This document shows, piece after piece, positions 58,539 through 62,800 of a stretch of DNA of 64,000 nucleotides. The stretch's first letter is position 1. Each line of letters opens with the position of its first letter. The DNA comes from Amphiscolops sp. MND2022 (taxonomy: Eukaryota): NCBI GenBank assembly GCA_964187785.1, contig OZ076409.1, positions 4,714,001 through 4,778,000 of the forward strand, given 5' to 3'. The position numbers were made by a program, and so were the translations under genes. Under the pieces are notes generated by a model that saw only the letters and a list, made by a program, of their open reading frames with translations, searched no databases and was not told where the DNA came from.

Positions 58539-61500
58539 TTAATCAGCAGACTTAGTAACATTAGCGTTTTTGGTCGCAGGATCTAAATTTCGACTGCGCT
58601 GGCAGGTTCCATCGGGATCCAATCGCTCAAGGATTTCGGCACGACCAAAGAAATCTACACTGTCCCAGGGGCTATAAATATCTGACGTCCCAACTCCAAC
58701 GAAAGTGGGTTCCAAGCGCAAGAAAGCAGCAACGGACTGATCGGAGCTGACAGCTTCCACACTATAAGGCACGTTTTGGAAATAAGATTGTACAGGTAAC
58801 ACCACGTCTACAAAACCACTTGGAGGATCGTCAGAATCAACTGAACCGAACTTGACTGGAGGTAGGGTCTGGAAAGGCTCATCGAGGCACAAACAAGCCA
58901 AGCGGAAAAGCTTGAGTAGCAACGGACGACTCAGGAGGGTAGCTTGCTCGATCAGGAAAGCAACGGTATCCCGGATGAAAAGAGTAGGTTGACGTAACTC
59001 TGGATACCTGCGTCGGAGATCATCAACAAATGACGCATACTCTTCTTGACATTCAAATTCTTGTTCTAATGAAAAGTGCCCTCGGAGTCGGAAGCTGGCG
59101 AACAGCTGAGAAAAGCAGTACATTGCGTGCGGTAGAGGTTCATGCAACAGCGTATCCAGGTCAAAACTGCTTAGGCCTTTCATTAGATCAGTAGTAAGGG
59201 TCTTCTGGTTTCGGACGGAACTGAACAGGTGAGAAACGTAACTTCTGGCAGACCTCCCGAAATCGTCCCTGTTCTTATTTGCCAACGCATCAAGTGGCAT
59301 CCCCTGGTCCTTTTTGTCTCGGATGTCCTTTTCTGCCATGGCCCTGCATGCGACCCGAAGTCGCGAACCCAATTTGATCCGGGAGATGAACTCGGAGACT
59401 GTGAGAGCGGTTACGCTCTTGATATCCAAATTTAAGATAGCAGTCCAATTTTGTTCGTCTGGTAAATCTGCAGGGTTGGAACATCTTCGAGCGAGCTTGA
59501 ACAAATATTGGCACAGTTGTCGGTACAAGTAGAAGTTGCGGTCCTTGCGTCCACTAAGGCTGATGGCGAAGCTATTTGCACCTAAACATCACAAGCCGCT
59601 TACTAACGTAGTCAACTAGACGCGAAGTATACAAACAAAATTAATAAAATGGACTCTACGTCAGGTTATTTCAGAAGACCGAAGATTGTTTAGTTAAAAA
59701 ACTTCTCCTACCACAATAAGAAACAACATTTACTAACAATCCCGTGCAAGAATCTGGAAAAGTTCGAGCTTGGTAGTGAACAGGTCGTCATACACAATGG
59801 ACCACTCCAGACTTTGTGGCTGAAAGGAATAACACCTGGTACCTAACAGTGAACATGGGCGAACTTTCAGTACGACAGACACAAAGTCATTACCTGATTC
59901 TTCACTCCTTGCATCTCTTGAGTAACAGTAGCTGATCCCAAATACTCCAAGACTGGATCCCAGTTAGATAACAATTCCTGACACATCACGTGAAGCTTAG
60001 CGTAGTCGAGTTTACAACTACGGATAGCCTAAAAACAAGACGAATGGTCACAAAGGCAATCTACAATATGACCGGACAGCAGGTCAAAAGAACACCTCCA
60101 ACCTTTGAAAGTTCGGGTGCGAGAAGAAGACACTCAAGGCTGAGACTGCCTCCTAGGAAGATTACAAGGTACTGCAGCACTGACACAAAGTTGATTCTTC
60201 CGAAGACACAATTGTTGCGCTTATGCATTAACTTCTGGAGAGACAACTCCTCAAACCTTTGGGGACTCTGCATCGCTCGGGGAAACAAAGGGCTTTTGTC
60301 CAACAATTGAACCAGCTCTAGTGAACATCCACTGCAGCAAACACGAGTAGGACTCGTCGAAATTGCAGCTAGCAGCCCACTCAGTAGATTGACTTCGGCA
60401 GAGCAACGTCCTAGCACACGCCCAGTCCGTTTGAGAAGGACCCTACAGAGCTGATTGTCTCTCCAGAAACGTAGGTGTAGGAAGAGAAACACACCCTTGA
60501 CCTCGAATTCAACAGCGTAATAGCCATTAGCAACGACGTGATATCCAATGTCTTCCAGCATTTGCACAAAGATGTGATGGAAAAGCACCTAAAATGGAGA
60601 AAATTCTCAACCCAATCACCTAAAAGGAGGTATCCTGACGTCCAAGGAAGTCTCGAACCCTAGGTTTAGCTGATAGGCCTGCGTAGATTAAAGAGACTTG
60701 GTTTTATCATAGTAAAATTACTAACAGAAAGTCTCTCTTTGCCCCAATTGAAGTCAGAGAAGAGGGCTTGGTGATTCACAACAACGCCCATATCCTTCCA
60801 AAGCCTCCTGAGCAACCCAAGGTCACCGATTGAAGGTAAGAAGTGCCCGAGGACGGATATCTGGACGCGAACTCTATTATCTGAGGAAGACGTCATGTGC
60901 GTGATGCCAGCCATAGCCTCGTGATAATAGGGAAGTTTTTCACCGATGTCAATTAATTCTGCCTTCTTGAAGTGCTCATACTCCCTCCTGAGATCTTTGG
61001 GAGACAATATCAGACCTTTACTGTCTCGAACATGATGGTGGATGACTTTGGTGACCGGGTCTTCAACTGTAAGGTGTTCGTACCGCCACCTCTGGTCCTT
61101 GCGGAGGTGACGTTCAGTCGAATGGTGCCTGAGGATTTCTTTAGCGCCGCGTCCATAAATTGAAATGTTCCCCTTACAAATCTGACAATAGAATTTGTAA
61201 GGGTTCCACTTAGGGTCCATAGGACCGGATACAAATGTTCTTGTCCAGGCCATCCCATCTAACATCTCATCTCTAAGAATCCTACTAGACCTTGCTACGG
61301 CTTTACGAGGGTTCTTGGGCCTGACCTTTGGTGCAGGTTTCTTTTGCCCTTTGCCTTTTGTCTTGACTGCTTCCTGCTTCAATTCTGCCAAGGTCTGGTT
61401 TCCAGGGCTTTCGCAAGTGGCAGAATTGGGGGTGGCAGCTGGGTCAACACGGCTGCTACTAGCAACTGGAGGACTAGGAATTTGGACAGCTGACAATCGA

Positions 61501-62800
61501 CTCGAGCAGTGTCCAGGATCAATATCGCTCCAGAACTCCCCCTCACTAGTTGCTCCTCTACTGTTGACGTCGCGACCACTGTCCTCAACCCCGTAAGACG
61601 TCAAGTCCCCTTCTGACCCAGTAGAACAGGAACGAAGGGATACTGGGCGGTGCATTGGGCCTTTACTTGCAGATGGGGAATCACGGAGGCTCAACTGACT
61701 AGCACGTATAACGACGCTGTTAAGCATCTCAAACGATGCTCTTGCCGTCTCATCTGCGACGATTCGTAAAATGTGTCCAATTTGTTCTTGGTTGAGGGCG
61801 ACGGTCGGGTGTCCCTGTGGCAAATTAAATGAGGGGGTTTTCTCAAAATAGGTCCGAATTACCGAATTAGCTCTTGACTATTGATAGAGAGTGGGGCAGG
61901 CCCCCCGGTGCGATGGATTGCTTCCTCAGGGGAAACATAGCTGGACTCACTTAGGGCAGGAGCAAAGTTCTTGACTGGAGCAGTAATAGCGTCAGCTAAT
62001 GTTGACCTCTTGGGTTGGACGGACTCAGGGTCACTAATGGCTGGGACTTTTGCTTCATTGCATGACATGGGTACATCCTCTCCTGACGTAGCTGGAGTCT
62101 GAGAATCAATGGGGCTGGAGGCGGAGGCTCCGCTGACGACAGGGTGCTCTCGCGCAGGGGCAAAGGTAAATTCCATTGGTAGAGCACTAATGTTGACCTT
62201 ACTCTTAGGGTGCTTACTGCCTTGTCCCTGATCGCGTACGTTGGAGTGTACAGGAGGAGTCGCAAGAGAAAGCTTCTCCGGTTCTCGTTCATGAACCTCG
62301 GTAATTGTTTTGTCAGGAGGAACGGTTGGATTCAGTTCTATGGGTTCGCTGATGCTGACCTTAGGAGGGGCTGACAGAACGTCAGGTGCATCTTTCTTTC
62401 CCTGGGAGCACATAGCAGCAAATTTCCGAGAACAATAGGCACCCACACTTTCGTCGGAACCACTACTGGCAAACACAGAACCTCCTCGTTTGTAAATTTC
62501 AGCTAAAAGGGATATATTCTCGGCTTCACGCTTGATTTGGGCTACACCTAAACGCTCCGGTGTAGTGACCTCTGGTTCAGGCTGTTTCTGAGGGGAATAT
62601 TCGGGCTCGGAAGAGGATAAGGTAATCTCAACCACTTCAATCTCATCCTCCGTGCGGTCACTAGATTGTCCTTCAACGTCAGCATTTTGTTGGCTAGTAT
62701 CCATCATCTCTCCGTTAGACTGAGTTGGTTGGCCGTTTGAATTCTCTCCTAAAAGGAAAGATATAAATGAGCGCGGTTGACTTCCTGCATAAAAATCCAT
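58539..62800 (-). CDS. Spliced antisense gene: BED-type zinc finger plus degenerate hAT-transposase-like protein
   Basis: Exons 61814-60726, 60588-60103, 60028-59894, 59819-59738 and 59581-58539 join in frame through GT..AG introns (944 aa). Probable first exon 62800-61863, whose junction is 1 nt out of phase. Finger W..FYCQICKGNISI..ILRHHSTERH. Confidence 0.75.

Follow-up and report, generated by a model that had tools for sequence, protein, structure and literature searches.

How does a retrotransposon with long terminal repeats (LTRs) come to carry, antisense to and directly behind its pol gene, an intron-containing gene that resembles the transposase of a hAT DNA transposon, and what might such a gene do there? 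The question is raised by a 64,000-nt stretch of DNA from Amphiscolops sp. MND2022 (assembly GCA_964187785.1, OZ076409.1:4,714,001-4,778,000, forward strand; hereafter the window), in which a minus-strand gene, here called the accessory gene, faces the pol of a Ty3/Gypsy element. Across the copies that we sampled, this gene lies inside the element, is linked to pol, keeps its introns and is under purifying selection, and we regard it as almost certainly a real, element-borne gene. We also lean slightly towards the reading that its product, a protein of ~1,300 aa with a predicted hAT fold, whose zinc finger is intact and whose catalytic residues are likely lost, is a DNA-binding regulator of its own element.

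The earlier note on this locus had left membership in the element unproven, as the 3' LTR lay outside the window. When they were sought past position 64000, both the 3' LTR and the polypurine tract (PPT) that precedes it were found in L031, the DNA continuing beyond the window end, which settles the matter: a complete Ty3/Gypsy element of 16.4 kb encloses the antisense gene. Its LTRs (50408-51956 and window-equivalent 65292-66840) are 1,549 bp each, 98.8% identical and bounded by TG..CA.

50403..50407, plus strand: left copy of a 5-bp target-site duplication (TSD), with the right copy after the 3' LTR in L031
50408..51956, plus strand: 5' LTR, 1,549 bp, TG..CA ends, from the comparison with the 3' LTR
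51957..51974, plus strand: sequence beginning TGG that resembles a primer-binding site, directly after the 5' LTR and within the gag frame
51311..53107, plus strand: gag, with a DUF1759 match above the cut-off and a weak zinc knuckle (Pfam)
53092..58321, plus strand: pol, with protease, dUTPase-like, reverse transcriptase (RT), RNase H and integrase domains in Ty3/Gypsy order (Pfam)
L031:3292-4840, just beyond the window: 3' LTR, preceded by the PPT

The primer-binding-like site is near-identical between subfamilies, and pol of the window copy is split over three frames. The first ~646 nt of gag sit in the LTR (window 50408-51974), so that every 3' or solo LTR has a gag start. The dUTPase-like domain lies between protease and RT (window ~54100-54360; PF00692, 25 bits against a cut-off of 22); according to the available text of PMC5408684, dUTPase is rare in retrotransposons.

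A DNA search returned 20 near-full-length matches (91-100%), and a protein search gave 7,089 first-look candidates, 148 of which were scored. From the best-scoring lists we chose 60 loci across identity bands, a non-random sample, and fetched ~20 kb around each: 10 close copies, 30 loci at mid distance (49-84% identity in the last exon) and 20 distant loci (28-51%). In 59/60 loci gag-pol was convergent with the antisense gene, even where the last exon is as little as 28% identical; the 60th, L008, had its pol left out of the test. Both LTRs and gag-pol frames were present in nine of the ten close copies (L008 showed a 3' LTR only), and eight of the ten had a 5-bp TSD, no two alike. The same convergent arrangement was observed in all 30 mid-distance loci (LTR pairs in 27) and all 20 distant loci (LTR pairs in 17). 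Five of these LTR pairs were identical, and the carrier lineage is large and recently active. The gene is thus neither single-copy nor unlinked to pol, as the earlier note had allowed it might prove to be; it sits inside the LTRs together with pol. Terminal inverted repeats (TIRs) of its own were not found either: in 11 copies, the longest inverted match between 330 nt downstream and 1.8 kb upstream was 10-14 nt, against shuffled maxima of 13-17.

The accessory gene is laid out as follows.

60726..62800, minus strand: long coding exon, frameshifted near 61,860 in the window copy
60589..60725, minus strand: intron 1, 137 nt, phase 0, GT..AG
60103..60588, minus strand: exon with a predicted RNase H-like core, modelled on the homologous copy L244
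60029..60102, minus strand: intron 2, 74 nt, phase 0, GT..AG
59894..60028, minus strand: mini-exon, 135 nt; its Trp, placed by eye at the hAT RW motif, is invariant
59820..59893, minus strand: intron 3, 74 nt, phase 0, GT..AG, exactly absent in L244
59738..59819, minus strand: mini-exon, 82 nt, in the spliced frame
59582..59737, minus strand: intron 4, 156 nt, phase 1, GT..AG
58539..59581, minus strand: last exon, with an all-helical model that aligns weakly to Hermes 361-604; it ends 34 codons early in this copy

The four introns proposed from the letters of the window, with GT..AG ends and matching phases 0, 0, 0 and 1, hold at the same coordinates, and the exons from 61874 to the stop at 58539 join into one open frame of 965 codons that contains the terminal stop only; the motifs quoted earlier were found in the spliced translation. 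The proposal that an upstream 313-aa open reading frame (ORF) forms a separate exon 1 has to be given up. That ORF is part of the same long exon, cut by the frameshift of the window copy: in L002 and L007 the 313-aa and 403-aa ORFs form a single ~690-codon frame, and the indel near 61,860 is absent from 9/9 close copies. The long exon runs from a conserved N-terminal motif through a ~500-aa Ser/Pro/Glu-rich stretch and a basic cluster to a CCHH zinc finger and a helical region. Because of the frameshift and of a stop that falls 34 codons before the family end, the window copy must be considered decayed. The convergent orientation and the distance of 217 nt between the stops of pol and the accessory gene were read correctly in this copy, but the distance is peculiar to it, because its accessory gene ends early and its pol runs beyond the family stop; in copies with a full-length last exon the gap is ~143-273 nt. 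Hexamers resembling sense-strand poly(A) signals lie in this gap (window 58340-58450) in 9/11 copies examined, a count made without a chance control, and could bring about an early end of the gag-pol mRNA.

At the projected exon ends, canonical splice sites were kept for introns 1 to 4 in 53/60, 55/60, 55/59 and 57/60 copies, as compared with 0.6% of 1,912 shifted control positions, and several of the non-canonical cases are indel slips or mutations in single copies. The introns differ in length by as much as about threefold, whereas the inner exons keep close to 486, 135 and 82 nt. The intron-4 junction is bridged without a break by the database proteins P0038 and P0030, and intron 1 by P0106 and P0218. 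Open spliced frames of 1,269-1,365 aa occur in 14 of the 60 copies. One copy, L244 (G000:C2:12.62 Mb), exactly lacks intron 3, the sole such case, suggesting recombination with cDNA of a spliced antisense mRNA. L216 had been considered as a processed copy without intron 1 and was rejected, its deletion being imprecise.

The comparison of substitution rates between copies, which the earlier note had proposed, revealed that the protein is constrained. Among 19 spliced copies, 165/171 pairs differed at a proportion of at least 0.7 of synonymous sites and at most 0.46 of nonsynonymous sites, and the ratio of nonsynonymous to synonymous substitution (dN/dS) was 0.03-0.06 in three unsaturated pairs and 0.13-0.27 in three additional ones. 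Three pairs from the youngest subfamily gave 0.77-1.28, as expected for decay after insertion. The accessory gene is under purifying selection among diverged copies. It evolves faster than pol (maximum p-distance 0.67 against 0.39), and the distances of the two genes correlate (Spearman 0.79, loci L080-L254). In trees built from 51/52 loci (D106 was left out), that of the accessory gene contradicts 7 of the 17 strong pol splits, the pol rows being noisy from frameshifts, which suggests that the gene has been exchanged as a cassette between subfamilies. The hAT-like fold and the broken window copy might suggest that the gene is a decayed passenger or a nested hAT transposon, of no use to the retrotransposon. 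Its constant position and orientation in 59/60 loci, the lack of detectable TIRs, the conserved splice sites and the saturation of silent sites while the protein is conserved all speak against it; linkage and selection together refute this reading, to which we give next to no weight.

What kind of protein, then, is being conserved? Predicted structures point to a hAT transposase. With the N-terminal model, the top 11 Foldseek rows were all Hermes (best E 7e-5), and half-models aligned weakly to Hermes 133-375 and 361-604, the latter in the VIA alignment. The core of the L244 model is predicted to run helix, three strands, helix, strand, helix, and in the models a helical insertion domain splits the RNase H-like core, more weakly so in the last exon. 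Ahead of it lies the zinc finger:

61107..61250, minus strand: CCHH zinc finger, C-x2-C-x16-H-x5-H, ligands invariant in 19/19 spliced copies

By language-model features, the nearest atlas clusters of this finger are hAT N-termini; in Pfam, one relative matched zf-BED at E 0.71 and zf-C2H2_12 at E 0.03, and a TUT4 finger aligns too. The Trp at the RW position is invariant (by eye), and conserved positions are spread along all 740 alignment columns. The order of domains is that of hAT transposases (Hermes 8EDG/4D1Q; Buster/FAM200/ZBED5-like clusters), namely finger, helices, RNase H-like core, helical insertion and C-terminal helices, and these share the Trp at the RW position (by eye). In agreement with the hAT order proposed earlier, the accessory protein is thus similar to hATs in predicted structure.

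Sequence profiles did not detect hAT: in exons, alignments and relatives Pfam gave no hAT family, nor a match to PF05699, the C-terminal dimerisation domain, and PDB sequence profiles gave 0 matches. The minus-strand ORFs of the window had no Pfam match above the cut-off, and Foldseek and the atlas gave no match with the last exon. Against 92 ORFs from 35 PF05699 loci, the family hidden Markov model reached a best E of 0.009 (reversed sequences: 0.099), and hhalign with six Ac-type ORFs was on a par with its controls at E 0.79, so that no donor was identified. Searches of the animal's own genome with DUF4371 and zf-C2H2_12 gave no match and, as the controls were equally silent, are uninformative; longer homologues were sought without success, which is weak evidence. 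The homologues listed (the best 150 of 594 and the best 120 of 632) are all unnamed ENA proteins. What speaks for a hAT origin are the fold searches and the language-model features, not the sequence profiles, and we judge the accessory gene to be probably hAT-derived.

If it is, the protein is very probably catalytically dead. By eye, across 19 copies, the first position of the catalytic Asp-Asp-Glu (DDE) triad reads E14/Q3/V/A, the second, at the end of strand 4 where hATs carry Asp, reads S15/L3/T, the third (Glu) region is variable, and the His of CxxH is replaced by R18/T; the triad suspected earlier to be lost is thus likely lost. Retained nuclease or transposase activity would require a rearranged acidic triad, for which 16 invariant D/E positions and a further always-acidic position in strand 1 could in principle provide. 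Given S, L or T in place of the strand-4 Asp, the lost CxxH, the variable Glu region (all by eye) and the absence of detectable TIRs in 11 copies, we consider such activity very improbable.

The region ahead of the gene offers a candidate target for a DNA-binding protein. The start motif is present in 48/60 copies, and two features stand out around it.

62823..62830, no strand assigned: palindrome TTCCGGAA, just ahead of the start codon, in 39/48 copies
62749..62961, minus strand: putative extra 5' splicing region, with sites kept in 40 to 48 of 48 copies

The palindrome TTCCGGAA, which we take to be ETS-like, has a background expectation of 0.0025 per 45 nt and is a candidate cis site for the protein. 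Further upstream, an ATG at 62961 (40/48 copies) precedes by 16 nt a donor at 62945 that is kept in 48/48 copies; an acceptor-like site at 62907 and a donor-like site at 62805 each occur in 40/48, and a phase-1 acceptor at 62749 in 47/48. From these sites we infer one or two further 5' introns, likely a 5' untranslated-region intron and an alternative N-terminus. Of two possible splice paths from a conserved upstream micro-exon with an ATG to alternative acceptors, one retains and the other skips a conserved 19-aa N-terminal motif; the implied associated intron would be 36-46 nt.

Beyond this region lies a second accessory gene, on the sense strand (L031:2561-3320, window-equivalent 64561 onward), head-to-head with the antisense gene over ~1.75 kb. 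It encodes an acidic, Cys-rich protein of ~250 aa with a CxxC motif, crosses the PPT and stops 29 nt within the 3' LTR. A homologue lies at L039:2568-3329; the gene is conserved between subfamilies (~29-100% identity) and matches no Pfam family, and the window's element carries a frameshifted copy of it.

On this basis we propose the following model. The starting point would be a hAT transposon, or a hAT-derived host gene, that inserted backwards into an ancestral spacer between pol and the LTR. TIRs and cutting activity, with the excision of the gene or breakage of the element that they would bring, would then have been lost. The introns would persist through reverse transcription of the genomic RNA, because on that RNA they read CT..AC. 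The antisense transcript would be driven by an internal promoter, placed in the ~1.75-kb spacer between the two accessory genes, and then spliced; the protein would move into the nucleus and, as an oligomer, bind repeats or palindromes of the element, and its long disordered N-terminal half would recruit host machinery, so that transcription is activated or silencing resisted. We see about an even chance that the protein regulates chromatin or transcription for the element or counters its silencing. The fuller proposal, an obligate antisense dead hAT oligomer that binds the element's own cis sites and activates it or counters silencing, encoded head-to-head with a second gene by a swapped cassette, seems to us evenly balanced between right and wrong.

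Alternatively, the dead transposase may act in integration, tethering the pre-integration complex or cDNA to a chosen sequence or chromatin, or may serve as a nuclear escort. The conservation of the entire transposase body along the 740 columns, not of the finger alone, would fit such a factor, and a nuclear-import role for antisense ORFs is raised in the available text of PMC7264820. The TSDs, however, are diverse and show no evident target motif by inspection, and the 7/17 conflicting pol splits are easier to reconcile with a swappable trans factor than with a tight partner of integrase; we consider this unlikely, if worth keeping in view. Less likely still is a Rev/Rex-like accessory factor that binds genomic RNA for export, packaging or translation, given that the nearest atlas clusters of the finger are DNA-transposase N-termini and that the hAT scaffold binds DNA (PMC10368747, available text). 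We would call it just as doubtful that the element or rival hAT transposons are repressed, whether by the protein or by the antisense transcript, through copy-number control or dominant-negative poisoning. The antisense convergent layout and the many hAT elements in the genome (at least 150 matches) would suit self-limitation, whereas the gaps of 143-273 nt mean that the transcript need not overlap pol, selection acts strongly on the protein, the lineage is abundant and young, and there is no sequence-level match to resident hATs. We set a regulatory or anti-silencing role, at about even odds, ahead of integration targeting, RNA-level help, self-repression, residual nuclease activity and a passenger.

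Element-encoded regulators or anti-silencing factors are familiar from HTLV-1 HBZ, which is antisense and spliced, and from VANDAL VANC; these proteins are unrelated to the accessory protein and serve as analogies only. Closer in arrangement are the antisense ORFs between pol and the 3' LTR (aORF-3R) described in the available text of PMC7264820 and PMC11963269, namely plant Retand TRP28 (PF04195), maize Grande gene23, rice RIRE2 and fungal Boty brtn, the last cited in PMC7264820 and in PMC8365987 (available text). They resemble the accessory gene in position, antisense orientation, near-universal presence in copies and conservation, and they too are proposed to encode DNA-binding regulators; the Grande gene has its own internal promoter and a nuclear protein (PMC7264820; PMC11963269, available text). 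The gene described here differs in its predicted hAT fold, at least four conserved spliceosomal introns, length of ~1,300 aa and animal host, and Pfam scans of accessory proteins for PF04195 (TRP28) gave no match. From hAT transposases it is set apart by the loss of DDE and CxxH (by eye), by TIRs that were not found, by a ~500-aa disordered N-terminal extension and by its carrier, an LTR retrotransposon with 5-bp TSDs. Host-domesticated hATs such as ZBED and CGGBP1 are likewise hAT-derived, likely DNA-binding and often missed by Pfam (PMC8097297, available text); here, by contrast, the carrier is a mobile element with very many copies rather than a host locus, and the whole transposase body is kept. 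LTR elements of bdelloid rotifers have captured genes after pol and a dUTPase between protease and RT, both as here, yet their ORF3s are env-like, GDSL or DEDDy proteins, and the available text mentions neither a transposase nor an intron (PMC5408684). In the literature, subscription journals, Repbase and supplements aside, we found antisense accessory ORFs of plant and fungal elements, none traced to hAT, and no LTR retrotransposon reported to contain a gene derived from a hAT.

Two other repeat pairs were observed in the window. Inverted repeats of 645 bp, 99% alike and 14.2 kb apart, contain 17-bp tandem units (32820-33464 / 47681-48325) and probably mark the two ends of a large DNA transposon. 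Direct repeats, 95% alike and 5.8 kb apart (26192-26852 / 32037-32696), are possibly the LTRs of another element.

Collectively, these findings provide structural support, in an animal, for a nested origin of an LTR-retrotransposon antisense gene from another transposable element (TE). The origin of the aORF-3R class is given as unknown in the available text of PMC7264820 and PMC11963269, and both take the missing similarity to other TEs to argue against such nesting; if our reading is true, a class of antisense ORFs would gain a member of traced origin. One mobile element would have domesticated another, in a gene common to subfamilies with saturated silent sites, and the retrotransposon likely reuses the enzyme of another element type as a DNA-binding helper. 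As sequence-specific DNA binding can be predicted for the protein, and as there are many natural variants of it and candidate binding sites, the role of such an antisense gene becomes directly testable.
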